The notes under the pieces: model-generated | What the model saw: only the letters and a program-made list of their open reading frames with translations | Database searches by the model: none | What the model was told of the DNA's origin: nothing | Shown: piece by piece, positions 2,322 to 63,568 of the stretch | Position numbering within the stretch: position 1 is the first letter of the stretch | Layout: each line of letters opens with the position of its first letter | Assembly (NCBI GenBank): GCA_044892525.1 | Contig: CM097885.1 | Span: forward strand, 8,868,001 to 8,932,000 | Reading direction: 5' to 3' | DNA length: 64,000 bases | Origin: Schmidtea polychroa | Lineage: Eukaryota | Position numbers and translations under genes: made by a program

Positions 2322-3606
2322 ATGCACCATATGCAATCAAACCCCAAAATACATCGTGTACAACTGACAAACCAAATCAGGGAGTTAATATGCTCAAAGT
2401 TCGAGGCAGGAAAAGGACCGAGTGAGATTTCCAGAAAACTTGCAATCAACGCAAAGACTGTCACGAGCGTAATCCGGGTGTATAGTTCCACCGGAAGAAT
2501 CCATGCAATAAAGACGAAAAGTGGAAGACCAAAATCATTAAATGAAGCTGCTGTACAGTCTTTACAGTCACAGATACAAGAAAACGTATCAGTGACTTTA
2601 AATGCTATGAAGAGAAGATTACATTCCGATCTAAACGTTGTAGCATCTCATTCGACAATAGCTAGATCAATTAAAGCGTTTGAATACACACTCAAAAGGG
2701 TTCGATTGATACCCGAACGAAGAAACTCGGCTGATAATATCGAAAGGCGTTTCGAATATGCATCCGATTTCGTGCTCTTGAACGACGAGAAAACTTTTTT
2801 TGTTGATGAAATGGGACTTAGCTGTTCTAAGAGGTTGAATTATGGTCGCAGCCTAAGAGGAACAACACCCAGGAAACCAGTGCGATCCATAAGATCGAAA
2901 AATATTTCGACCGCTGCTGCAATATCTAAAAATACTGTCATGCATTTCAGCACTCGCGATACTGCATTCAATAGTAATCATTTTGGTGTTTTTTTGCAAG
3001 AGCTCAATGAAAAACTATCAACTTTAGGCATTGAAAATGCAACAATAATAATGGATAATGCCACGATTCACAATACCGACGAAATTCGAACTATATTTGC
3101 AAATTCTGACCATGATTTACTATTTCTTCCTCCATACTCCCCTTAATTAAATCCAATTGAAGAGGTGTTTTCAAAATGGGAACATATTGTTAAATCGATG
3201 GAATGCAATCAAGCAGATGAGTTATTGAGGGCTATAGCCCAGGGGTCTCAAACACGTGGCCCGCAACGAAAAAACATAGATTTGTAATTTAACCAAACTT
3301 ATTTAACAATTAAAATCATAATTGGCTGTATAAATTAAAACTTATCTTTTTAATTATTTTTATTTATACATATGACGTCTAGTACAATTTAATAATTTTA
3401 ATTAAATAAATATTAACGTCGGTGTTTCAGACTCCACATGTTCTGAAAAACAATTATTTATGTTGCGGCCCGCAGGCCAGTTTGAGTTTGAAACCCCTGC
3501 TATAGCCAGTGCCCACTTGGATATTACGCCCGAAGATTGTTTGCAGTATGTTCAACATATGAAAAGTTTCATAAGAAAAGGAGCCGAAGAGAACCTATTT
3601 AAATGA
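2322..3606 (+). pseudogene. DD34E transposase inactivated by a nonsense codon and a MITE insertion
   Basis: HTH N-terminus and FVDEMG / IMDNA / LPPYSP*LNPIEE motifs, with TAA at 3144-3146 in frame. Removing the MITE plus one TSD restores the frame to TGA at 3604-3606. 34 residues separate the second D and the E. Confidence 0.9.
3240..3499. mobile_element. hAT-type MITE nested in the transposase
   Basis: TIRs CAGGGGTCTCAAAC / GTTTGAAACCCCTG, subterminal GGCCCGC motifs, perfect 8-bp TSD CTATAGCC (3232-3239, 3500-3507). Confidence 0.92.
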
Positions 3607-7871: not shown

Positions 7872-8692
7872 TATAATAATTATAATAATACTTATAATAA
7901 TAATATTTTTACTTTATTAAAACAAATTAAGACAACATTTGCGCGCACGGATTTCCCTTTGAACTACCTTTAAAATGACCCCTTGATCAATAAAATCCAA
8001 GCAAAGGTACTCTCAAAATATTAATTTTAAGAAAATACACACACGCAATCTTTAATTAAACTATATATCCGCCATCTTGAAAAATATGACCTTGACCTTT
8101 GAAAGTATGACCATGATACTTACATCTCAAATACCTTTCGAATGATATATATATATATAATGATATATATATATATATTATAAGGTTTGAAAAATTCGAA
8201 GGTTTTTACCCTTTGAAGGTTATTGACCAACCATACACCTTCGAGGATATGACCATTAGATAGACCTCTCAAATACTTTTCGTCTGGTATATATATTATA
8301 AAGTTTGGAAAAAATTCGAAGGTTTTTACCCTTTGAAGGCCGAGGACCCACCATTCACCTTTGAGGGTATGACCATTAGATATACCTCTCAAATACCTTT
8401 CGAGTGATACCCTTTGGTGAAGATTTGACCTTAAAAAATATATCCTTGGCCTTAAAAAATATGACCTTGACCTTTAAAATATGACCTTGGCCTTAAAAAT
8501 ATGACCTTGATGAGTCATCCAATGACATTGAATGAGTCATGGTCTTTGTTTCGATGACCTTGATGAGTCATCCAATGACCTTGATGAGTCATCGGATGAG
8601 TCATGGCCTTTGTTTCAATGACACTGATGAGTCATATGTCTTTGTTTAAAATTTGACCTTGACATGTGCCAGTGGTGACACATCCTACTACT
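7790..8692. mobile_element. Orphan right TIR of a Polinton-like element
   Basis: Ends ...GACACATCCTACTACT. Dense TGACCTTG and ATGAGTCAT repeats; 7890-8500 closely resembles 51160-51625. No partner end or TSD found. Confidence 0.7.
8495..8665. promoter_or_regulatory. Cluster of AP-1-type (TGAGTCA), TGACCTTG and CTTTGTT motifs in a Polinton TIR
   Basis: Six ATGAGTCAT copies interleaved with TGACCTTG, CTTTGTT and CCAAT within ~170 bp. Function is inferred. Confidence 0.55.
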
Positions 8693-28474: not shown

Positions 28475-29029
28475 GTAAGAAATTTTTAAATTAATATAAA
28501 TAAGATTTTATATGGTTTTTATAATATCTCCCCTTCGGAGGATTTAGGAAACTATTTTTAATAGTGATTTCTGATCTGATATTTCCTTTAGAAAATTACT
28601 TTTGAGTTATCTAGAAAATGCATATTTTGACGAAAAAGAATTTTAAATTGTGAAAAAATTTATTTTGAAATTCAACCAAATTCAGTCGAATAATACACAA
28701 ATCAAATTTGATAAATAAAAAAAAATTTATGAATGCTAAAAATGAAAATAAAAATATTTAAAAAATTCATTAATATAAAAACCGAATGGTCGGTAATAAT
28801 TAACGAATTTGATTGTAATATCATTTATTTACAAAAGCTAATATGAGATAGTAGATGGATTGGTCACCGCTAGATCAGGTCACCGCTAGATCACCTACCC
28901 CCCCCCCCACCCCCCCCCCCGGCAGGAAAAATTTTTTTAAGATTTTTTTTTCAAGGTCAAATTTTTAACAAAGACAATGACTCATCAAGGTCATTGAAAC
29001 AAAGAACTTTTTTTTTTGTTTTAATTATC

Positions 29030-30095
29030 GTGATCTAGCGGTGACCTACCTTTTGACTTCCCAGAACTTTTTGAGTTTTCAAAATTATTTAAATATTTAT
29101 ACATCATTTTGAAGGCCAGACGAAAATCTATCTTTTAAGCCATAGAAATAATTTTTATCATTAGTGGTGCAAAAGTTATTAATTTTTTAGTCAGACACTA
29201 ATTTGGTTAAAATTATTATTATTTTTCAAAATATTATTATTTTCAAGGTCATATTATTATTAAGTGATCTAGCGGTGACCTACCTTTTGACTTCCCAGAA
29301 CCTTTTGAGTTTTCAAAATTATTTAAATATTTATACATCATTTTGAAGGCCAGACGAAAATCTATCTTTTAAGCCATAGAAATAATTTTTATCATCAGTG
29401 GTACAAAAGTTATTAATTTTTTAGTCAGACACTAATTTGGTTAAAATTATTATTATTTTTCAAAAATATTATTAAGTGATCTAGCGGTGACCTACCTTTT
29501 GACTTCCCAGAACTTTTTCAATTTTCAAAATTATTTAAATATTTATACATCATTTTGAAGGCCAGACGAAAATCTATCTTTTAAGCCATAGAAATAATTT
29601 TTATCATTAGTGGTACAAAAGTTATTAATTTTTTAGTCAGACACTAATTTGGTTAAAATTATTATTATTTTTCAAAATATTATTATTTTCAAGGTCATAT
29701 TATTATTAAGTGATCTAGCGGTGACCTACCTTTTGACTTCCCAGAACTTTTTGAGTTTTCAAAATTATTTAAATATTTATACATTATTTTGAAGGCCAGT
29801 CGAAAATCTATCTTTTGAGCCATTAAAATAATTTTTATCATCAGTGGTACAAAAGTTATTAATTTTTTAGTCAGACACTAATTTGGTTAAAATTATTATT
29901 ATTTTTCAAAAATATTATTAAGTGATCTAGCGGTGACCTACCTTTTGACTTCCCAGAACTTTTTGAGTTTTCAAAATTATTTAAATATTTATACATTATT
30001 TTGAAGGCCAGTCGAAAATCTATCTTTTAAGCCATAGAAATAATTTTTATCATCAGTGGTACAAAAGTTATTAATTTTTTAGTCAGAGACTGATT
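29030..30095. repeat. Five tandem units, alternating 234/212 bp, each starting GTGATCTAGCGGTGACC
   Basis: Unit starts at 29030, 29264, 29476, 29710 and 29922; mirrored at ~44275-45340. Confidence 0.9.
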
Positions 30096-30178
30096 TATGG
30101 TTAAAATTTTCAAAAATGTTCAAAATTTACTAAGTAATTTGCGGGTAATTTGTCAATCATCCAATCAGGTACGACTTT

Positions 30179-30713
<535 letters not shown>

Positions 30714-43657: not shown

Positions 43658-44188
<531 letters not shown>

Positions 44189-44274
44189 CAAAGTCGTACC
44201 TGATTGGATGATTGACAAATTACCCGCAAATTACTTAGTAAATTTTGAACATTTTTGAAAATTTTAACCATAAA

Positions 44275-45340
44275 TCAGTCTCTGACTAAAAAATTAATAA
44301 CTTTTGTACCACTGATGATAAAAATTATTTCTATGGCTTAAAAGATAGATTTTCGACTGGCCTTCAAAATAATGTATAAATATTTAAATAATTTTGAAAA
44401 CTCAAAAAGTTCTGGGAAGTCAAAAGGTAGGTCACCGCTAGATCACTTAATAATATTTTTGAAAAATAATAATAATTTTAACCAAATTAGTGTCTGACTA
44501 AAAAATTAATAACTTTTGTACCACTGATGATAAAAATTATTTTAATGGCTCAAAAGATAGATTTTCGACTGGCCTTCAAAATAATGTATAAATATTTAAA
44601 TAATTTTGAAAACTCAAAAAGTTCTGGGAAGTCAAAAGGTAGGTCACCGCTAGATCACTTAATAATAATATGACCTTGAAAATAATAATATTTTGAAAAA
44701 TAATAATAATTTTAACCAAATTAGTGTCTGACTAAAAAATTAATAACTTTTGTACCACTAATGATAAAAATTATTTCTATGGCTTAAAAGATAGATTTTC
44801 GTCTGGCCTTCAAAATGATGTATAAATATTTAAATAATTTTGAAAATTGAAAAAGTTCTGGGAAGTCAAAAGGTAGGTCACCGCTAGATCACTTAATAAT
44901 ATTTTTGAAAAATAATAATAATTTTAACCAAATTAGTGTCTGACTAAAAAATTAATAACTTTTGTACCACTGATGATAAAAATTATTTCTATGGCTTAAA
45001 AGATAGATTTTCGTCTGGCCTTCAAAATGATGTATAAATATTTAAATAATTTTGAAAACTCAAAAGGTTCTGGGAAGTCAAAAGGTAGGTCACCGCTAGA
45101 TCACTTAATAATAATATGACCTTGAAAATAATAATATTTTGAAAAATAATAATAATTTTAACCAAATTAGTGTCTGACTAAAAAATTAATAACTTTTGCA
45201 CCACTAATGATAAAAATTATTTCTATGGCTTAAAAGATAGATTTTCGTCTGGCCTTCAAAATGATGTATAAATATTTAAATAATTTTGAAAACTCAAAAA
45301 GTTCTGGGAAGTCAAAAGGTAGGTCACCGCTAGATCACGA
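44275..45340. repeat. Mirror copy of the five-unit tandem array of C
   Basis: Five GGTCACCGCTAGATCAC-ending units; reverse complement of 29030-30095. Confidence 0.9.
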
Positions 45341-46035
45341 TAATTAAAACAAAAAAAAAAGTTCTTTGTTTCAATGACCTTGATGAGTCATTGTCTTTGT
45401 TAAAAATTTGACCTTGAAAAAAAAATCTTAAAAAAATTTTTCCTGCCGGGGGGGGGGGTGGGGGGGGGGGGGTAGGTGATCTAGCGGTGACCTGATCTAG
45501 CGGTGACCAATCCATCTACTTGAGATAATTTATGGCACACTCATTTGATAAATATACTGATGTAGTAAGTGTATAATATAACAGATTGCAATCCTATATA
45601 TTTAAGTGTGAATAAAAAATACGTACAATATGAACGTGGCCTGTTTTCAAAGCATTCTCCAGACGGAATTATGAAGTTTATATGTGAAACCGTCAAAGAT
45701 GTTTAATTAAGGTAAGTATATAGTAAAAGCTATATAAATAAAAAACTTTACATTATGATTTCTATCTGATTATATCCAAATATTAAAGACAAATTACTCT
45801 TAGGAAACTTTGTTTTTGAAAATTCATTTTTAATAGCAATTTTTGAGAGATTTTGATAGAAAAAAAATGTCAACGTTGGAGAGAAATGTACAAGAACTGC
45901 TATTTAATTAGTTAGGAACTCAAAGATTACGGAAACCAAATGTTAAATCTTCATTTTGAAAGATTTTGTCACAAATTCATTCTTGGAACAAATTTGAAAA
46001 GGTTTGGTAAATCTTAACAGCAATTTTATTTGCAG

Positions 46036-47709: not shown

Positions 47710-47971
47710 GGGGCCGTTCATAAAGTACGTCATGCTCCAAAGGGAGGGTGCAAGAAAATGTGACGGTTTTGACAAGGGAAGGAGGGTATTCAGGCCATAT
47801 GTGCTTCACATATTTAATTTTTTTTATTTTTTTTCTAATTTATTTTTTTCGAAATTGTGACGTATTTTAGGAGAGGGGTTCGAGATTTATGACAGTTTTT
47901 AACATGGGGAGGGAAGGAGTGTGTTATTAATATATAAATACGAAACTTGATGAGTGACGATATGGTCATTT
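47710..47971. mobile_element. Probable Harbinger-type MITE running into the gap
   Basis: TAA followed by GGGGCCGTTCATAAAGTACGTCA. Right end not visible. Confidence 0.4.
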
Positions 47972-48211
47972 NNNNNNNNNNNNNNNNNNNNNNNNNNNNN
48001 NNNNNNNNNNNNNNNNNNNNNNNNNNNNNNNNNNNNNNNNNNNNNNNNNNNNNNNNNNNNNNNNNNNNNNNNNNNNNNNNNNNNNNNNNNNNNNNNNNNN
48101 NNNNNNNNNNNNNNNNNNNNNNNNNNNNNNNNNNNNNNNNNNNNNNNNNNNNNNNNNNNNNNNNNNNNNNNNNNNNNNNNNNNNNNNNNNNNNNNNNNNN
48201 NNNNNNNNNNN
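47972..48211. other. Assembly gap (N run)
   Basis: 240 N characters. Confidence 1.
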
Positions 48212-48492
48212 GCATCTTTAAACAGAGTATGAAACAGGAAATTGTTCGGTATTACATCTGCATTGGCATCCAAAACTTTTCTATCTTTATCTACAACCTT
48301 GATCTGAACAGTCAATAAAGTATCGTTCAAATCTAAATATTCAGTTTGCGAACCAGTAATATAAAACTCTTTATCATTTCTACTATCGGTAATTGAATTC
48401 ATAAGAAAAACTTCCTCAAAAGCCCCAAATTCTATTACAGCCTGGGGCGATGGTCTATCAAATATACATAATTCAGATTTACCACAAATCAT
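48212..48492 (-). CDS. Polinton major capsid protein (double jelly-roll), N-terminal part cut by the gap
   Basis: CGKSELCIFDRPSPQAVIE...EFYITGSQTEYLDLNDTLLTVQIKV matches the conserved KSELxLF...EF.I.G...YLDL start of Polinton MCPs. Confidence 0.85.
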
Positions 48493-48857
48493 TTTGAAAT
48501 ATTAGTTCCATGTCCTTTCATTCGTTTGTTTATACGTGATATTCCATGTCTTTTACGTTTTGGAGCTGGGGCTGGGGATGGAGGCGTATCTTTTTGAAAC
48601 ATACCTGCAACCCCGGGTAGAACCTTCCCTAACTCAGCTAAAGCATTTGTTTTTAGGGATTGTAATATTTTCTGTTCATTCATAATCACGTCTTTAGTAG
48701 TTTTCATGCCAAAACTACCAATACGTTTAAGAATAGGAAGTGCAAATCTCCCTATTGTTTTTAACCAACCTGATCCGTACTGTTTACCAACGAAGTATGG
48801 TAATTCACCGCCAGATTGGCTATCACTATACATACTAATAATATCGGAATTAGCCAT
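48489..48857 (-). CDS. Polinton virion core/membrane-active protein precursor with putative protease sites
   Basis: QSGG and QYGSG motifs, amphipathic GWLKTIGRFALPILKRIG and a basic C-terminus. Lies between the minor and major capsid genes. Confidence 0.7.
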   Translation of the reverse strand: MANSDIISMYSDSQSGGELPYFVGKQYGSGWLKTIGRFALPILKRIGSFGMKTTKDVIMNEQKILQSLKTNALAELGKVLPGVAGMFQKDTPPSPAPAPKRKRHGISRINKRMKGHGTNISK

Positions 48858-49893
48858 CTACTTTACGAAAATGTAATGTCAAATGAGTTTTTGAACCTTT
48901 TGGAAAGTTTATAAGTTTTCCACTATCATCACGAATATTTATTTCTATATTGTTTATACATGAACTTGCTATTGGTAAATACATGGGATTATCGATATTT
49001 ATATTGAAAACTTCATCATGTTCATATCTACCAATCCATACCGATTTCAAAAAAGGAACACTGGAATCACCAACAGTTATGGGTTCGATAATGTTAGTAT
49101 ATATGAACATTTGTTGATGATGTTCTAGTATTATTGGTTTGCGTATACCAGTCGATTTTTCTCGATATTTTTGCCTATCTAATCCAAGTGAATTTGCCAA
49201 ATTTTTATCAAATGTAACTTCGCAAATATCATCATTCAAACTGAAGGTAAACATTAAATCTTTCACAATTTCCAAATTTTTAAATATGTGTGAACAATTG
49301 AACTTTAAATATTTAAGTAAATCATCAAGTTTATCAAAATATAATTCATCAGCAAAGGTAAATGATTCTTCAACTTCATTATTATACGACACAGATATTT
49401 TGATTTCTTCTTTCACTATACTGTTTGCTTCAAATAGATTAAAACGTAATAAATACTCGGTCTCCGTAACAATATTTTTCAACTTATTGCAACCCATTCG
49501 TTTGGCATCTTCAATAGTTTCGAATGTTATTGCAAATGGTTTAAAATCACAACTGATATTTAATCCATCCTTGTAAAACATATAGCAATGAGAATCTAAT
49601 ATTTGATTCGGAATATGATATGTTTTATCATAATTACTGATAACAAAGATACCGCTACATGTTTTCACAATATTCCTTTTGAAATCAATCTTACATTGAC
49701 TCTAAAATGGGAATGTGTTGTACACGAATGTAAAATCTTGCAGTGCAACTTCCCAGTCCCCATTTAAAGAAATCGGATTCTGGAGGTTGACCATGAATTT
49801 GCTGGCTTGATTATCTGGATGAATTAATGGACAACTATTGCTCGGCAAAATAGTATAAAAATTCACTTTATTAGGTCTTTTGCTGATATCCAT
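48850..49893 (-). pseudogene. Polinton minor capsid (penton) protein with one in-frame stop
   Basis: FYTILPSNS...F.VNLQNPISLNGDWEVAL N-terminus and FIYTNIIEP..VGDS.VP.L...P.YLP...I..IEINIRD..G..I.F...T.LTLHFRK C-terminus. TAG at 49702-49704 separates two in-frame ORFs. Confidence 0.88.
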
Positions 49894-50492
49894 GACGGGT
49901 TTTGATAACCATGCCATTTGACATAGTATTGTTTATCCTTGCCGACCTTTTTAGTTAACAATATATTTTTTGAATTCTAAATACTTTTGGGGGAGGAATG
50001 ACTTGTAATTCCTGCTCATAAAATTTCCCTTGTACAATATTATTATCATTATCTTTGATGACATACATTACAGGATTCTGTTTAGTATTTATTTTTGAAA
50101 TTACAAAGACTTCATCACTCCAATTTGTATCAAAATTTTTAATAAATGGTGATGCACTAATTTTACTAATTCTAACATGGTAACCGACTTTATATTTAGG
50201 TTTTGCAATTTTTACAGATTTTTTAGAAGTCAATGATGTTTTTGATGTAATATCAACCGGTCTCAATCCATTCAGTCCTCGATGTGATGAATGATTATAA
50301 CTTGTTAATATTTTCGGTAAAACATTTACCCATTTTTTATTACCTTGATGCACGAACAATTTCTTTAATCTATCTCTCAATGTTCGATTTAATCTTTCAA
50401 CATGGGCAGCTTTTATTGAGAATGTACCGAGTAGTGATTTATTTTCAGTTTATCGAGGATTTGCTTAACTTTGCTATTGTAGAACTCTTTAC
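49863..50492 (-). pseudogene. Polinton retroviral-type integrase, 3' exon (catalytic E region, chromodomain-like tail), frameshifted
   Basis: TTTTAG acceptor, then (G)KEFYN...KAAHVERLNRTLRDRL...SYNHSSHR...YKVGYHVRIS...NWSDEVF...GKFYEQELQ...YYVKWHGY...SWI. Frameshifts near 50418 and 49955. Confidence 0.88.
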
Positions 50493-53260: not shown

Positions 53261-53895
53261 ATCAATAAGTTGCAATAGAAATAAATCCCCAACAATCGAA
53301 ATTCCCGTTTTAATAATTTTAATTTGCACTTTCTAATTAAAAACTATTTTCAATTAAATTTCTCAACAATAGTAGGTGGTTTGGGCACCGGGAAAACAGG
53401 ACTCCGGGAGCACAGTACCCCCCCCCCCCCCCCGGGGGAAAAAATTAAAAAAAATTTTTTTTTCAAGGTCAACTTGAGAACAAAGACAATGAGTCATCCG
53501 ATGACTCATCACTCGTCTAGAACAAAGACAATGACTCATCCGATGACTCATAAAAAATTATTATTATTTTTCAAAAATATTATTATCTGTGCTCGCGGAG
53601 TTCTACTTTTCGTCAGCCCAAAACTTAGTCTAAATCTCAAAATATTTTAACAATTTATAGTTCATTTTGAAGACCAGACGAAGACAAATCTTTTGAGCCA
53701 TATAAATAATTTTTATCATTAGTAGTATAAAAGTTATTAATTTTTTAGTCAGACACTAATTTATAGCAAATTTATAGCAAATTTTATGAAGAAATTTGCG
53801 GGTGATTTATCATTCACCCAATCAGGTAAGACTTTAATTTTATGAAGAAATTTGCGGGTGATTTATCATTCACCCAATCAGGTAAGACTTAAATG

Positions 53896-53942
<47 letters not shown>

Positions 53943-53967
53943 AAAGTTTTAACAAGTTTTAACAAAG

Positions 53968-54057
<90 letters not shown>

Positions 54058-54858
54058 CTGTTGTTATTGACTTTGAGAATAACTGACAATATACAAAGAA
54101 ATTAAAAAAATAAGAATAAATTAAAAAGTAATAATTAGAATAATATAGAAAAAAATTTTAAAAAATAGGGTTTGAAAATCAAAATTGACACATTTATTGA
54201 AATATTTAAATAGCATATATAAGTAGTTATTGGAGGCTTTATTTAAAATATTTTCAAATATTTTATTAGGCTTCTAGAAGCTAATTATAGAAGCTGTAAA
54301 AAATTTAAAAATTTTAGTTTGTGTCATTTTGAAATTTTAAATGTAAAAATTATAAAAAAATTTTAAAAGTTTTTAGTAAAACAATTCATTATATTTACAA
54401 CCAATGAGAATTAAGAGAAAGGAAATAAAAGAAAGATTGAAGGGTATTTTGAAGAAGAACATTGCTAAATTCCAGGAGATTGACAAGGACTATCGTATAG
54501 TCGAAAATTCTTTCATTAAATACATTATTTGCAGCAAAAGGCTTAAATTATCATTTTATTGTTATTATTATTATAAGAGAGATGTAGTTGCATGCTGACT
54601 GCAAACTACTGTTACAAATTATTTTCTCGTATACCAAATATAAAAATGAAAACATTACAAGTTTTCAAAAATAATAATTTTTACCAATAATATCATTTTA
54701 TGCTGAAACATTTTCGATAAATTTATATGAAAATATAATGTTTAAACATAGAAAGAATTGTGAAAACTATAACGAGTTTTCAATAAAATATATACATTAT
54801 AAAAGAATACAAATCAATAAAAACATTTTTTTTTTAAAAGATATATTAATATATCACA

Positions 54859-56889
<2,031 letters not shown>

Positions 56890-57274
56890 CTAAATCTGTT
56901 TGCAAGTTATTAGGATGTCCATCTTTAAATAAAATATTAATTGCCTTGGACATTTCTTCTGCAGATTTTGCCTTGACTGGTATTGCTCGTGCAAACCTGC
57001 TGTATACATTAATACATGTTAAAATATATTTATTCCCATTGTTAATTTTCGAATAAGGTATCATCATCAAATCCATTTGCCATAAATCGTCAATACCAAA
57101 TGTTTTATACGCTCTTGTTGGAAATCTTTTCCGCATTGGTTTGTTCAAACTGTACGCAAGCTGATCTGATAACCACTTCTGGGTTTCTTTTTTCGAATTC
57201 GGAACTCTTTTCTTTAATTTTGCCACTCCACCGAAACCGGCTTCGTCTTCTGGGTTCTTCCAAATCTTCTCCAT
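56890..57274 (-). CDS. Polinton integrase, 5' exon only
   Basis: MEKIWKNP...GFGG...WLSDQLAYSLNKP...LWQMDL...KYILTCINVYSRFARAIPVK...LQTDL(G). Donor G|GTATT at 56889 is followed by (TAT)n. Confidence 0.9.
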
Positions 57275-57332
57275 TACAACAAGAAGATTTAAAATTAAAT
57301 TTAATGTCGGGCAATGAAGGATTAGCACCCAT
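57105..57332 (-). CDS. Putative myristoylated small protein overlapping the integrase 5' end
   Basis: MGANPS fits MGxxxS, followed by CC and an RRRSRFR patch. The ATG lies 3 nt after the stop of the preceding gene. Confidence 0.5.
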   Translation of the reverse strand: MGANPSLPDIKFNFKSSCCNGEDLEEPRRRSRFRWSGKIKEKSSEFEKRNPEVVIRSACVQFEQTNAEKISNKSV

Positions 57333-57335
57333 TGT

Positions 57336-57602
57336 TTATGACTGTGTAACTCCACCTAATAATGATAATGCCAGAGGTATCAATGCACCAATAAATCCAC
57401 CTTGTTGTTTATATATAATTTTCCTCATTTGCTTACGATTTTTATTATTTACTAATGATAACAAAGGTTTCCTATGTTTGCTCAATAAATGCTTTTTTGA
57501 TTTACTGATTTTAATTTTGCCTTTGACTACTTTAAGTATAATATTGAGTAAATCATCGACAACAAAATTTGGGAATGATTGCAATATATTCATTCTTTTC
57601 AT
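57336..57602 (-). CDS. Adenovirus pX-like core protein precursor
   Basis: Basic body, then QQGG-FIGALIPLALSLLGG, resembling the adenoviral pX cleavage site and hydrophobic tail. ATGA overlap with the upstream ORF. Confidence 0.75.
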   Translation of the reverse strand: MKRMNILQSFPNFVVDDLLNIILKVVKGKIKISKSKKHLLSKHRKPLLSLVNNKNRKQMRKIIYKQQGGFIGALIPLALSLLGGVTQS

Positions 57603-57871
57603 ACTCGGGCCTTTAACAATGCATTAAAAAATGGAAAACTGCGATGATTTTTAACTACTTTTTTACCGGTTTTACGGGTTTTACGGGTTTGACGTTTAGG
57701 TTTAGGATTTTTCGAAATAAGATTCATTGCAGAGAAATTTTCAGTTACAAGTTTTTTAGATGGTGTATAACTAGTTGTTGGTGGAACTTTTGGAACTTTT
57801 GGAACTTTAATACTCTTTCTAATACTTTTTCTTAATTTCCTAATATTTTTCACCCTTGCTTTTAGAAACAT
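57599..57871 (-). CDS. Lys/Arg-rich basic protein, putative DNA-condensing core protein
   Basis: Very basic 90 aa with PKV and TRK repeats; tightly packed between the ATPase and the pX-like gene. Confidence 0.6.
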   Translation of the reverse strand: MFLKARVKNIRKLRKSIRKSIKVPKVPKVPPTTSYTPSKKLVTENFSAMNLISKNPKPKRQTRKTRKTGKKVVKNHRSFPFFNALLKARV

Positions 57872-57889
57872 TATTATTCATAGAGGTTT

Positions 57890-58516
57890 TCAACTTTGTT
57901 TATAAACCATGGCACCTTTTGGGTTGAAAATATCTGTTTTTACTCGTAAATCATCGGGACATTGTTGCGTGAAATCAAGAAATATATATCCATGAGGTAT
58001 TTTTGTAGCATCTTGAAATGCACTGATAAGAAAATTACGATTGTTAGGGTATGCTTGATGTGCAAGAAAATCAATCACTGTTGCATCTCTAGGATTCTTG
58101 AAAATAACTAAATATTGTACATTTAAATTACGTGTTCGATGTGCCCCACCTTGATGAAATAGATTTTGTGTTATGAAAATAACTGTTACACCGACATGTC
58201 TGCTGATCTTTGTAAATAAATTATTAAAATCTTTTTCTTTATTAGCTTCTTGATACAGATCATCAATAATAATGACATCACCTTTCTTTAATCGGCTGGA
58301 CCAGTTTTTATCGAATCCCTTTACTATTTTCATGTTTTTTATTTCACAGAAACTTGATTGAGTTAATCCATGTTCTTCATCAGCACCCCTATGCCAATAA
58401 ATCCTGTTGAATTTTGATTTGAATAAATTTGATTTTAGTAATTTACAAACAAATAATGTTTTTCCACTACCACTCGGACCAACGATTTGGTATACTGCAT
58501 CATTTCTTAATTCCAT
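57890..58516 (-). CDS. FtsK/A32-like genome-packaging ATPase
   Basis: Walker A GPSGSGKT, Walker B IIIDDL, SRH.GVTVIFITQNLF, RTRNLN.QY...FKNPRD, PHGY...D. Confidence 0.95.
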   Translation of the reverse strand: MELRNDAVYQIVGPSGSGKTLFVCKLLKSNLFKSKFNRIYWHRGADEEHGLTQSSFCEIKNMKIVKGFDKNWSSRLKKGDVIIIDDLYQEANKEKDFNNLFTKISRHVGVTVIFITQNLFHQGGAHRTRNLNVQYLVIFKNPRDATVIDFLAHQAYPNNRNFLISAFQDATKIPHGYIFLDFTQQCPDDLRVKTDIFNPKGAMVYKQS

Positions 58517-58615
58517 TTCAAAAATTTTATAAATGTGTATTTGTTTATATTCAATGATTTAATGAACTCGTGCTCAATTTGTATATAAAGAATAATTTTC
58601 ATAAATGATTTAATA

Positions 58616-59053
58616 ATGTTAGCAAATATAAATTATCGAGGAAATTTTGATGTATCGAATATGAGGTTCCCACCAGGGAAACCCCAGCAAATTATCGATA
58701 GAAGCGGGAAATATCCGATAATATTTTTCAAGACTGGTAAATGTAGAATCATGGGATGTAAGAAACCTTTGGATATTAATAAATTACAATATCGAATAAA
58801 TAATATTATAATCCAATCAATTACCGTTACTATGGATATGGGACATAGTATCAATTTATATAACATGTCGAAAAAATGTGATTGTATGTTTGAACCGGAA
58901 TTGTTTCCGGCACTAAGACTATTAAAATATAACCCTATATGTGTCAACGTGTTTGCTAGTGGAAAGGTTGTCATGCTGGGGTTGAGAAATTTGGAGTATA
59001 GAGAATTTGTTGACAATGTTCGAAATGAGATAATTTCATTGGTCGATTTCTAA
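58616..59053 (+). CDS. TATA-binding-protein (TBP)-like protein
   Basis: Two TBP-type repeats: IIFFKTGKCRIMGCK, IIIQSITVTMDMGHSINL, FEPELFPAL, VNVFASGKVVMLG. Divergent from the ATPase gene, with TATATAAAG at 58582. Confidence 0.9.
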   Translation: MLANINYRGNFDVSNMRFPPGKPQQIIDRSGKYPIIFFKTGKCRIMGCKKPLDINKLQYRINNIIIQSITVTMDMGHSINLYNMSKKCDCMFEPELFPALRLLKYNPICVNVFASGKVVMLGLRNLEYREFVDNVRNEIISLVDF

Positions 59054-59127
59054 TTGGTTAATTTCTAATTGGTTATTGATTGATTTAAACAAACGGTTTT
59101 TTGTTTAGGATTCATTTATTCAACACT

Positions 59128-59542
59128 ATGTACAAATTACCAAGCGCAGCAAACCTCATGAAAGATATCGACGATTATGGTAAATTTAAAATTTTTATTT
59201 TGACATTTTTTTTTTATTATTTTAGAAAAATATTTAGAAGTTATGCTCAATAGGATAAAATATTATTATCCTCAAATTGCGGAAATAATCAAGGACAGAG
59301 ATCCAGAAATCGTTCCAGATTTGATTTTTTATTCAACCCAAATTAGAATCATGGAGGTATTCCATCAATTCTTATGGGATATTAAGATCAACAGAACCAT
59401 GAAGCAAATGGAGCCAGAGTACCAGTGCATCATCGGATGTTCATGTTGTGCCGATCGATATCGGCGATATGTCGAATGGGAGTTCGTGAAAACTCTGAGA
59501 AGGTTTCACTACTCCCGGATTGTTGATTTAGGATATGAATAA
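59128..59542 (+). CDS. Two-exon hypothetical protein with a C-x3-C-x-CC motif
   Basis: Exon 1 59128-59179, 46-nt GT-AG intron 59180-59225, exon 2 in frame with ORF 59243-59542; AATAAA at the stop. Confidence 0.7.
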
Positions 59543-59782
59543 ATGTATTTAATGTTTCAATTGTGTTTTTTTTTTTTTATATTTAAAATAGTAATAATTA
59601 TAATAATAATAATAGAAATAGTAATAATAATAATAGAAATAGTAATAATAATAATAATAATAATAGAAATAATAGTAATAGTAATAATATAAATAGTAAT
59701 AATAATAATAATAAAACATTAATAGAACATAAATGCAACATCAATGCATTTTGAATGCAATTTAAACAAAGACATGCTATAA

Positions 59783-59820
59783 TCTGATTGGTTGATAGGC
59801 ATGAGTCAAAGGTATAAAAA
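59783..59820 (+). promoter_or_regulatory. Compact Pol II promoter: inverted CCAAT, AP-1 site, TATA box
   Basis: CTGATTGGTT...ATGAGTCA...TATAAAA, with the TATA box ~40 nt upstream of the ATG at 59854. Confidence 0.65.
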
Positions 59821-59853
59821 CCCTGTAACATTTAAATTTATTCATTATTCACG

Positions 59854-60264
59854 ATGACCAAGAAAATTTCAAGCACCGAAAAACCTAAAGAAATGGTACA
59901 ACCAGTTCAAATGTTCCACAACTACAAAATGTATTTTTTGAAAGAAGAAATCAATATGAAATTGGTTGCACCAGTCAAGCTAATTCCAACTAAATTTCAA
60001 TTCTTATCCGGCACGCTTTCAATGATTGATGTCAAAACTATTGATGATGTTTTTAAACGGATAGATTCGAATCTATCGTGTAATCAACATGCATGGTTCA
60101 ACAATAGATATGTAAGATTTTATGATGCTTTCGATGAAATCAGTTTCAAAGAAAATGAAAATTGGTATATAACAATTGCAATCCAGGGATATAAAGTTGA
60201 TAATAATGATGTATATTCTCCTATTTGGAAAATTATGTCTGCTAGACTTTCACAAATATTTTAA
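59854..60264 (+). CDS. Hypothetical protein conserved among these elements, possibly an OB-fold ssDNA-binding protein
   Basis: Clean ORF with promoter and AATAAA; homologous remnant at 53040-53260. Aromatic, beta-rich C-terminus. The fold is speculative. Confidence 0.7.
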   Translation: MTKKISSTEKPKEMVQPVQMFHNYKMYFLKEEINMKLVAPVKLIPTKFQFLSGTLSMIDVKTIDDVFKRIDSNLSCNQHAWFNNRYVRFYDAFDEISFKENENWYITIAIQGYKVDNNDVYSPIWKIMSARLSQIF

Positions 60265-60391
60265 TGTTATATTTAATAAATGTATTAGTCAGATTTGTTT
60301 TTTCTCTTTATTAATTGCAACATAAATGCAAATGACATGCAAATTTAACAAAGAAAATCTATAAACAAACTTATAATATAGTTTTAAAGTG

Positions 60392-60768
60392 ATGAAAATG
60401 ACTGCAGAAAAAGGTTAACATGATTAATTAATTACCGAATTATTTATTATTTAGAATTTGTAATCAACTTTTTGTTGGAAAAGTTAGCAGAAATAGCTGG
60501 TGTGAAAATTGAGGACATATTATCTGTTACAAATGCATTAAATATCGGCTGGGTAGTTGAGAGTCAAGATACAGGATTTGATGATCAGGAAGAAGAAACT
60601 CAAGAAACTGATACTCAAGAAATTGATGAGGAAATATATGAACCTATAGATGAACCTATAGAGGAACCTAAAGATGAACCTAAAGATAATATTACGAATG
60701 ATTGTATTGATCATGTCGTTGAAAATATAATGAAATGCGGAGATGACGACTGCGAATGTGTTAATTAA
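60392..60768 (+). CDS. Two-exon acidic hypothetical protein
   Basis: Exon 1 60392-60413, 41-nt GT-AG intron 60414-60454, exon 2 in frame with ORF 60472-60768. D/E-rich with EPxD repeats. Confidence 0.65.
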
Positions 60769-60845
60769 TAAATCTTAGTTAGTTAGTGTTTGTAAATTTA
60801 TTCAAAATTTTATTTAAAAACGAAACAAAATAACTATATTAATTT

Positions 60846-61360
60846 TTATTTAAAAAATCGCGATAAAGCATACAAAATAGCAACACCTGTTGCAAGTTTT
60901 ACATAGTTTTTAAATTTTCTTTTCTGATGATCTATTTCCTTCGCATTTCTGGCGAGTTGATTCAGTACGCCCCATCTGCCATTGGCTTCAATCCATGGTT
61001 GAAACTTTGACTTGATTATCTAGAAAATATATATTAATAAAATATAGATTATAAAAGTATTACTTCTTGAGACCACTGATAATAATGTTCAGAGTCCCAT
61101 AAACTTCTTTCGATTATGATCTTCATATAAGCAAACCCTACTAGTATTCGGGTCCACTTCATCTCATCATCGCATAGACAGTTAAAAATCCTATGAAAAT
61201 AGAATTTTTTCGTTTCGAGGCAATCGCTATTGAGCATATCTTCATAATCAATATGATTTCCTTCTATAATCTTTTCGGTCCGATCGACCAGGAAACTGAG
61301 GCTTTCCATAATCTTCTTGTTGATAAGTTCGCTTAAAAGATTTTCCATAAAATGAGACAT
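60846..61360 (-). CDS. Bcl-2 family protein (156 aa, two exons)
   Basis: Exon 1 61360-61064, 44-nt intron 61063-61020, exon 2 61019-60846. BH1-like FHRIFNCLCDDEMKWTRILVGFAY, BH2-like FQPWIEANGRW, tail anchor YVKLATGVAILYALSRFFK*. Confidence 0.85.
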
Positions 61361-61487
61361 TTCTACAATAATTTAAAATATGATGTTTTATTTATACTAA
61401 TACCGTATGATTTTGATTGGTTGATAGACTATAAATGTAAAAGAAAGGTTTTGATTTGATACACCATGAAATCTATATTCATATTGC

Positions 61488-61572
<85 letters not shown>

Positions 61573-61604
61573 CTTTATAATAATAATCCAATGTGAATTT
61601 GTTT

Positions 61605-62113
<509 letters not shown>

Positions 62114-63568
62114 CATTTAAGTCTTACCTGATTGGGTGAATGATAAATCACCCGCAAATTTCTTCATAAAATTAAAGTCTTACCTGATTGGGTGAATGAT
62201 AAATCACCCGCAAATTTCTTCATAAAATTTGCTATAAATTTGCTATAAATTAGTGTCTGACTAAAAAATTAATAACTTTTATACTACTAATGATAAAAAT
62301 TATTTATATGGCTCAAAAGATTTGTCTTCGTCTGGTCTTCAAAATGAACTATAAATTGTTAAAATATTTTGAGATTTAGACTAAGTTTTGGGCTGACGAA
62401 AAGTAGGACTCCGCGAGCACAGTTAATAATATTTTTGAAAAATAATAATAATTTTGTATGAGTCATCGGATGAGTCATTGTCTTTGTTCTAGACGAGTGA
62501 TGAGTCATCGGATGACTCATTGTCTTTGTTCTCAAGTTGACCTTGAATAAAAATTTTTTTTTAATTTTTTCCGCCCGGGGGGGGGGGGGGTACTGTGCTC
62601 CCGGAGTCCTGTTTTCTCGGTGCCCAAACCACCTACTAACAATAATTTTGTTATTTTCAAATTTCGATTTAAATAATTTTTGAAAAATATTTAATTATTT
62701 TTCAAGAATTTTGAAAAGAAAATTACAAATAAATAAGAAATACACTGAAAAATTACCAATAATCAAATATCAATTTTATCTACATCAAAAAACATTTTAA
62801 ATATTGAATTTTTAAAAGTAAGAAGAAATAATTATTATTTATAATTATGATGAAAAATTTGAAATATTTTATTAATTTCATAATGAAATATTTAATTGAT
62901 TTATTTTCATAATTATTGGTTAGAAACTTATTTGAATAAGACAAAATATTTGCTTTTTTAACATTTTCACAGATATTAATATTTTATTGATTTATTTATT
63001 TTACTACAAATTTTCATTATCCCGATTGACTTATTTTAATTATTTCTTAAAATTCTTGATACAAGATTTAGATTAAATCTTCTGAGTGAATTATATTCTA
63101 ATATTTGGATCAGTGAAATATCCTTATCCAATTATGGATCATTCCCAATATTTATAACCATAACGAGATCATTAGATCAAATGCCAAAACCCCACAATTT
63201 CTGAATACATTAGCGTTACCCAATAAAATTTCATTCAAATATTAAACAATTATTCTTTAAAAAATGAATGAAATTTTTTTGTTTATTTTGTTAAAAAGTA
63301 TTTGAAATAACAATATTGATTTAATTTGAATTTCCGTTTAAAAATGTTATTTAAATTTCCATCAAAATTTTACTTTTTGTTATCAAATTTTAATTTAAAA
63401 TATTTTGTAAGATTTAAAATAAATAAAAAAAATAAATAGTAACATTAATTTCGAATTTCGCTCAAAGCTAAAATACAATATTTATATATTGTTTGTTTAT
63501 CTACATTAAAATACAAATTATAAATATTGAAATTGTAAAAGTCAGAAGTAATAATTAATATAATAAGT

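Follow-up and report, generated by a model that had tools for sequence, protein, structure and literature searches.

What does the open reading frame of 103 codons at the right end of a Polinton/Maverick element of Schmidtea polychroa encode, and what would its product do for the element? The window, i.e. the whole stretch of DNA that was analyzed, comprises 64,000 nucleotides (GenBank assembly GCA_044892525.1, contig CM097885.1, positions 8,868,001 to 8,932,000 of the forward strand). An initial annotation, made from the letters alone, had proposed that the frame is part of a spliced Bcl-2-family gene in the Polinton accessory block, and profile searches, splice sites, selection and position support this proposal. 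We consider it fairly probable that this is a two-exon accessory gene, likely spliced by the host, and that the product is likely a tail-anchored pro-survival protein binding Bak/Bax-type BH3 helices.

A protein-primed DNA polymerase (PolB), an integrase, a packaging ATPase, terminal inverted repeats (TIRs), AGT...ACT ends and a 6-bp target-site duplication (TSD) were all present in the host element, PolB and integrase being partial in the window copy (Table 1). The TIRs were recognized as 523-nt arms, 99% complementary, and then extended outward. Apart from about 7.7 kb that it lacks, the window element is colinear with a 17.2-kb family member. The missing segment holds the protease, capsid and penton genes, none of which is present in the window copy, together with the remainder of PolB and integrase. 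In the 17.2-kb member the protease matched Pfam C5 (E 3e-6), and the capsid and penton genes, without a Pfam match, are putative and named from size and position. The protease gene of a fuller member may open with a short exon followed by a 37-nt intron (L092, about 8240-8330, minus strand, by eye). The Bcl-2 gene is the last gene before the right TIR. Exon 1 had 2,401 candidate matches, the best 150 of which were 92-100% identical, and locus L002 duplicates the insertion present in the window.

Table 1. Coordinates of the Polinton element and of the Bcl-2-family gene in the window.
Feature	Position	Strand	Remarks
Polinton/Maverick, internally deleted	53371..62637		9,267 bp; ends AGT...ACT, 6-bp TSD
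Left TIR, outer part	53371..53941
Right TIR, outer part	62068..62637
Protein-primed PolB, C-terminal half	54859..56742	minus	Pfam DNA_pol_B_2 E 2e-20; N-terminal half absent
Integrase, N-terminal part, cut at deletion	56771..57274	minus	Pfam rve E 2e-6
Packaging ATPase	57890..58516	minus	Pfam Pox_A32 E 4e-7
TBP-like accessory gene, 145 aa	58616..59053	plus	Pfam TBP E 7e-15
Accessory gene, likely spliced	59128..59542	plus	candidate 46-nt intron 59180-59225, inferred from sequence
Conserved accessory ORF, 136 aa	59854..60264	plus	no Pfam match
Acidic accessory gene, likely spliced	60392..60768	plus	convergent with Bcl-2 gene; candidate 41-nt intron 60414-60454
AATAAA of Bcl-2 gene	60850-60845	minus	overlaps stop codon; poly(A) addition site ~60831, where a poly-T loose end lies in run X3
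Bcl-2-family gene, exon 2	61019-60846	minus	57 codons + stop; BH2 segment, basic linker, hydrophobic tail
Bcl-2-family gene, intron	61063-61020	minus	44 nt, GT...TAG, phase 0
Bcl-2-family gene, exon 1	61360-61064	minus	297 nt, 99 codons, ATG at 61360, stop-free
TATA box, candidate Pol II promoter	61396-61389	minus	seen in sequence; function inferred
CCAAT box, candidate Pol II promoter	61420-61416	minus	seen in sequence; function inferred

Elsewhere in the window, a second Polinton fragment with capsid, core-protein-like and penton genes lies at 47899-49917 (minus strand), with a masked run of N inside it (47972-48211). At 28900-30200 and 44180-45460, some 16 kb from each other, arrays in inverted orientation consist of 212/234-nt repeats related to the TIRs and suggest a gene-poor palindromic Polinton derivative. 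A Tc1/mariner-type transposase ORF (Pfam DDE_3, E 4e-18) was read at 2322-3146 (plus strand). Two inverted-arm derivatives at other loci (L087+L088 and L166+L167) have the Bcl-2 gene at both ends; one of them has capsid genes and no PolB, the other PolB pieces and no capsid.

Joining the 99 and 57 codons of the two exons yields a product of 156 aa, and the frame without splicing meets a stop after 103 aa; coordinates and arithmetic of the 44-nt GT-AG intron and of both products were confirmed as initially annotated. Exon 1 covers the region of helices 1-6 including the BH3-like and BH1 segments. The GC content of the intron is 11%, compared to 35% in exon 1 and in exon 2. The CCAAT and TATA boxes, 56 and 29 nt upstream of the ATG, are common to sister subfamilies L036, L039, L136, and L149. 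About half of the close copies differ by 1 nt in the length of a T-run near 60857, a few codons before the stop, and this length difference alters the last residues of the tail.

Family membership was assessed with each exon separately. Taken alone, exon 1 matched the Pfam Bcl-2 family (PF00452) at E 0.014 and 16.4 bits, under the 31.4-bit cut-off, which was exceeded by the sisters L039 (34.5), L036 (34.4, scored with X at its in-frame stop) and L043 (32.7). A profile built from Polinton exon-1 sequences only gave 30 PDB matches at E≤0.1; 29 of these are named Bcl-2 family, with BAK as the best (E 0.001), and the thirtieth is a schistosome protein that we presume to be a Bcl-2 homologue. The Polinton-only exon-2 profile matched Bcl-xL BH2 best (E 0.007) and recovered the BH2 motif (W..xGGW) in this match, and 59 of the 60 rows shown were Bcl-xL or Bcl-2. 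An earlier PDB search with an alignment (A1, E 2e-17) was set aside as partly circular because host Bcl-2 rows were included. A single-sequence PDB search with exon 1 gave nothing significant, and the Atlas neighbours of exon 1 (0.93 and 0.91) were of low recognition. Outside this genome, exon 1 retrieved one protein and, in another search, one representative, the L043 query no homologue, and the alignment query six, three of which are host Bok-like and were in effect seeded by host rows.

The initial annotation had named a BH1-like segment, a BH2-like segment and a C-terminal anchor, each of which can be refined. The Trp and Arg of BH1 are retained; the family Gly is replaced by Thr in 35 of 36 close copies read, the site is Thr or Ser in all Polinton members and in L032, and the glycine of NWGR is absent throughout the Polinton copies compared. 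Loss of this Gly does not cost family membership, because the motif deviates in established members as well, for example in Boo (PMC8998228, consulted in part); what it lowers is the status as a canonical pro-survival protein. The BH2-like segment holds by its profile match to Bcl-xL, but of the 35 close copies read only two, the window insertion and its duplicate, have the Arg, the other 33 having Gly. A hydrophobic C-terminal 19-mer with basic flanks was found in all seven copies examined (Kyte-Doolittle means 0.99-2.29); the window copy, at 0.99, is only moderately hydrophobic, and its sisters range from 1.0 to 2.3.

Fold models were all-helical with low to moderate confidence (pLDDT 64.5 and 71.1). 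Foldseek gave nothing at E≤0.001 with these models (best E 0.007), and all 37 rows listed were Bcl-2 family; VIA-align ranked Bcl-xL at the top (Z 8.2, rmsd 3.6, 79 aligned) amid unrelated helical chains. In the comparison with Bcl-2 structures that the initial annotation had suggested, the profile of each exon thus matched, whereas the fold models were weak. Judged by its sequence, the gene is a member of the Bcl-2 family.

Viral Bcl-2 homologues are mostly pro-survival. For the predicted product a pro-survival role is the outcome that our analysis renders reasonably probable, and suppression of host cell death by the element is plausible. Host RNA polymerase II would transcribe the gene from the putative CCAAT+TATA promoter and the host spliceosome would remove the intron. 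From what is known of the family, the protein would be anchored by its tail in the mitochondrial or ER membrane, with host Bak/Bax-type BH3 helices held in its groove. Replicating linear DNA and integration would then provoke a blunted death response, and the cell would survive while the element replicates. Such a benefit would not depend on virions, being equal for an element that copies itself only inside stem or germ cells.

Binding was modeled with the intronless sister L043 (1-122) and a host Bak-like BH3. The complex scored 0.70, the best control 0.02; the mark applied to such models was reached by 51 of 78 solved pairs and by 2 of 108 mismatched pairs. The runs agreed in at least 95% of contacts, pLDDT was at least 59 for the partner and 81 for the sister chain, and the BH3 Leu sat in the groove. 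The model is one of the sister protein, which is 22-27% identical to the window exons, and its pass may be explained by likeness to solved complexes.

The initial annotation had gone further and read the Bcl-2 gene as an argument for an infectious or virion phase. This argument fails: capsid genes are missing from the window copy, a palindromic capsid-less derivative retains the Bcl-2 gene in both arms, and LTR-retrotransposon polyproteins of this genome carry Bcl-2 domains as well. The long LTR-retrotransposon frames with Bcl-2 domains also have env, and such elements may be viruses too. We hold it to be doubtful that the gene has its role in a genuine, particle-based infectious cycle, the element being a virus and not a transposon. 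In its favor, fuller family members have capsid, penton, protease and ATPase genes, and each of the best 150 capsid matches is given as 100% identical across 200 aa; this conserved capsid gene is a better hint of particles than the Bcl-2 gene. Besides the points above, relatives of the gene were searched for in viral contigs and none were found, and Maverick particles have not been observed according to the part of PMC8097293 consulted. An infectious cycle is compatible with the pro-survival reading; it is the inference from the Bcl-2 gene that does not hold.

It is unlikely, in our judgment, that the Bcl-2-fold product has a changed groove and a non-apoptotic job, e.g. damping autophagy or innate signaling, even though several viral Bcl-2-fold proteins have such jobs. 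The BH1 Gly is replaced across the clade, and the Atlas neighbours, as leads only, include poxviral Bcl-2-like clusters. M11 acts mainly on autophagy (PMC11209288, in part), and Boo and Trichoplax Bcl-2L4 point the same way, a Ser at the BH1 Gly site altering BH3 selectivity in Boo (PMC8998228). Set against this are the retained BH2, tail anchor and BH1 Trp/Arg, and the canonical BH3-in-groove pose of the modeled sister protein. Still less probable is a pro-apoptotic product or a dominant-negative decoy that would kill or sensitize cells, with progeny release or a selfish toxin-like effect as the outcome. The sequence leaves the direction of the effect unfixed, the best matches of the exon-1 profile being pro-apoptotic BAK; the best weak match of the exon-1 fold was Bax (E 0.56), and helix 2 has a Leu-x4-Asp pattern. 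The BAK and Bax scores are, however, too near those of A1 and Bcl-xL for classification. The promoter resembles the early, host-read type, candidate copies number thousands in the genome, and most viral Bcl-2 homologues described are pro-survival (PMC11209288), all of which favors the pro-survival reading over a killing one.

The 44-nt stretch has the marks of an intron, and the host likely splices it. GT and AG were retained in 38 of 38 distinct close copies, including the window copy and its segmental duplicate. Among 21 hand-picked diverged loci, 17 (34-73% identical in exon 1) carried, at the same phase-0 site, a GT..AG intron that was 38-51 nt long and unrelated in its interior; in the remaining four, one donor was changed and three loci were without a usable acceptor or donor. 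No intronless copy was present among the best 150 exon-1 and the best 150 exon-2 matches, with open frames of 106-117 aa and 57-69 aa, respectively. The second Polinton family, L043, has an uninterrupted 144-aa gene that is colinear across the intron site. The whole 156-aa window product was scored against a custom profile of such intronless relatives, and only the spliced frame of exon 2 raised the score (33.8 bits with X at the intron, about 22 bits otherwise). Read-through of a stop codon as a substitute for splicing was considered separately and ruled out, many introns not being multiples of three (44, 41, 43, 46, and 38 nt).

Comparison of the window with L039 gave pS of about 0.44-0.45 and pN of about 0.11-0.12 for exon 2 in the spliced frame; the other two frames showed no pS/pN bias, and it is only in the spliced frame that exon 2 shows, by this measure, purifying selection. 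The values for exon 1 were 0.83 (pS) and 0.13 (pN). In 35 close copies the shared variants were synonymous-rich (25:12 in exon 1, where 18 of the 38 loci had been picked by exon-1 protein similarity, which biases the counts, and 15:13 in exon 2), synonymous sites making up 17% of exon 1 and 21% of exon 2. Singleton variants looked neutral (4:19 and 7:21, with three stops). As far as the copies reveal, this pattern is one of selection during replication and decay once inserted.

Contigs from runs X1 and X3, which are only guessed to be RNA, were compared with the window. Two X1 contigs end precisely at 61019 and one at 61064. An X3 contig from a diverged subfamily has a 70-letter loose end at 61059 in the register of the 44-nt skip; 25 of its 30 shown letters equal exon 2 by eye, and 26 of 30 match exon 2 of two sister subfamilies. 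Subject to the guess about these runs, contigs thus end at both splice sites and one of them joins the exons, in agreement with the splicing initially annotated. Run X5 is DNA-like, and its contigs were compared only in part. For the convergent acidic gene, L132 has the candidate intron at an identical site, and contigs of X1 and X3 start at 60453. Run X3 also has a poly-T end at 61360 and, on the opposite strand, a poly-A loose end at 61042 within the Bcl-2 intron, beside an antisense AATAAA (61036-61042); convergent or upstream transcripts may end within the Bcl-2 gene. That the AT-rich stretch is left unspliced, the gene yielding only the 103-aa product or being dead cargo, is highly improbable: the read layout on the window does not list a joint for the intron, some contigs cover it, and database gene calls are unspliced frames of 103-112 aa, but the splice sites are fixed although intron length and interior vary, selection on exon 2 is in frame, and both the intronless relatives and the joined contig are in line with splicing.

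The position of the intron and the phylogeny were compared with those of host bcl-2 genes, as the initial annotation had called for. An exon boundary after the BH2 Trp is conserved in the Bcl-2 family (PMC8998228, in part), and host-type genes have GT directly after this Trp in five of eight loci (L028, L032, L033, L034, and L035). Polinton genes read through this boundary and have their own intron about 16 codons before the BH2 Trp. In a tree of exon 1 all intron-bearing copies formed one clade (90/91), and this clade grouped with L043 and L032 (97/97), apart from other host paralogues; three long-branch rows (Burro, L028, and L034) were omitted from this tree, and the base of a first tree that included long branches was unresolved. 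The distance of two host paralogues to Schmidtea mediterranea Bok-1 and Bok-2 is below 0.1 substitutions per site. L032 is a single-copy locus (G000:C1:268544056-268544499) without Polinton genes within 10 kb, and is 42-47% identical to the intronless Polinton family and 25% to exon 1. It has Ser in BH1; its last exon was looked for and not identified, and the gene head-to-head with it is presumably an M20 peptidase gene. On another contig, seven or more nearly identical Bcl-2 genes stand in tandem (L021-L027, G000:C4 89.9-90.8 Mb); they have no BH2 intron and no obvious tail.

The intron was likely gained inside the element, because all copies with the intron fall into a single clade, next to a Polinton family without it and the host-like L032. 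As the simplest reading we infer that an intron-free copy of an L032-like host bcl-2 gene was captured and that a single intron gain followed; L032 may instead have been domesticated from the element and not represent the donor lineage. A fuller scenario is offered tentatively: after intron-free capture the gene would have gained its own intron, one of several short introns of the accessory block, and its product would be a working BH3-binding apoptosis blocker, present in hundreds to thousands of copies as a host-spliced early 'survival' module. If true, this module could be tested in a regenerating animal.

Polinton genes have been described as intronless, namely in vertebrate Mavericks (PMC8097293, in part). 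Annotation based on open reading frames misses spliced accessory genes, as the database calls, cut off at 103-112 aa, illustrate. A lineage-specific intron gain would imply that the element's genes have long been transcribed and spliced in the nucleus. In the planarian, PIWI silences Polintons, and the silencing is released on differentiation (PMC8532177, in part); a pro-survival gene on an element of very high copy number would offer a tractable test of whether elements of this type manipulate the death of host cells. A Bcl-2 gene alone does not settle whether Polintons form virions.

Several known systems are comparable. Bcl2 and IAP homologues have been published in adintoviruses (Starrett et al. 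2021, PMC8502044), where, likewise, a Bcl-2 homologue lies in the accessory region of an animal element with PolB, integrase and capsid. The part of that source consulted does not mention introns or splicing of these genes, whereas the planarian gene is likely spliced and occurs in at least five subfamilies; planarian names had no matches in its main text and part of its supplement. Vertebrate Mavericks (Barreat and Katzourakis 2021, PMC8097293) share the AGT...ACT ends, 6-bp TSD, TIRs, length of about 17 kb and core plus accessory genes. As far as that paper was covered, introns were not seen in genes that intact elements carry and bcl is not mentioned; in the planarian Polinton, introns of 41-46 nt occur in at least one accessory gene and likely in three. 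The vNr-13 gene of herpesvirus of turkeys (PMC7199394, in part) is likewise a two-exon viral Bcl-2 homologue with a TM tail, but it retains the host exon/intron organization and NWGR; the planarian Polinton gene lacks the host BH2 intron, has its intron at a new position, and carries Thr/Ser in BH1. The planarian LTR retrotransposon Burro (PMC6431247, in part) is also a mobile element with a BCL2-like domain, which differs in lying inside a long polyprotein and on a separate long branch in the tree, and its capture was likely independent of the Polinton capture. Among the cellular Bcl-2 family (PF00452) the nearest member is L032, which shares the BH1 Ser and differs in its single copy and in the GT after the BH2 Trp. 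Our literature search, to which introns of nematode Maverick cargo did not belong, found no report of a spliced Polinton Bcl-2 gene, and the part of PMC11071296 covered has no mention of bcl2. Bcl-2 cargo is thus already known in this class of elements; the spliced form, with an intron gained in the element, appears to be new.
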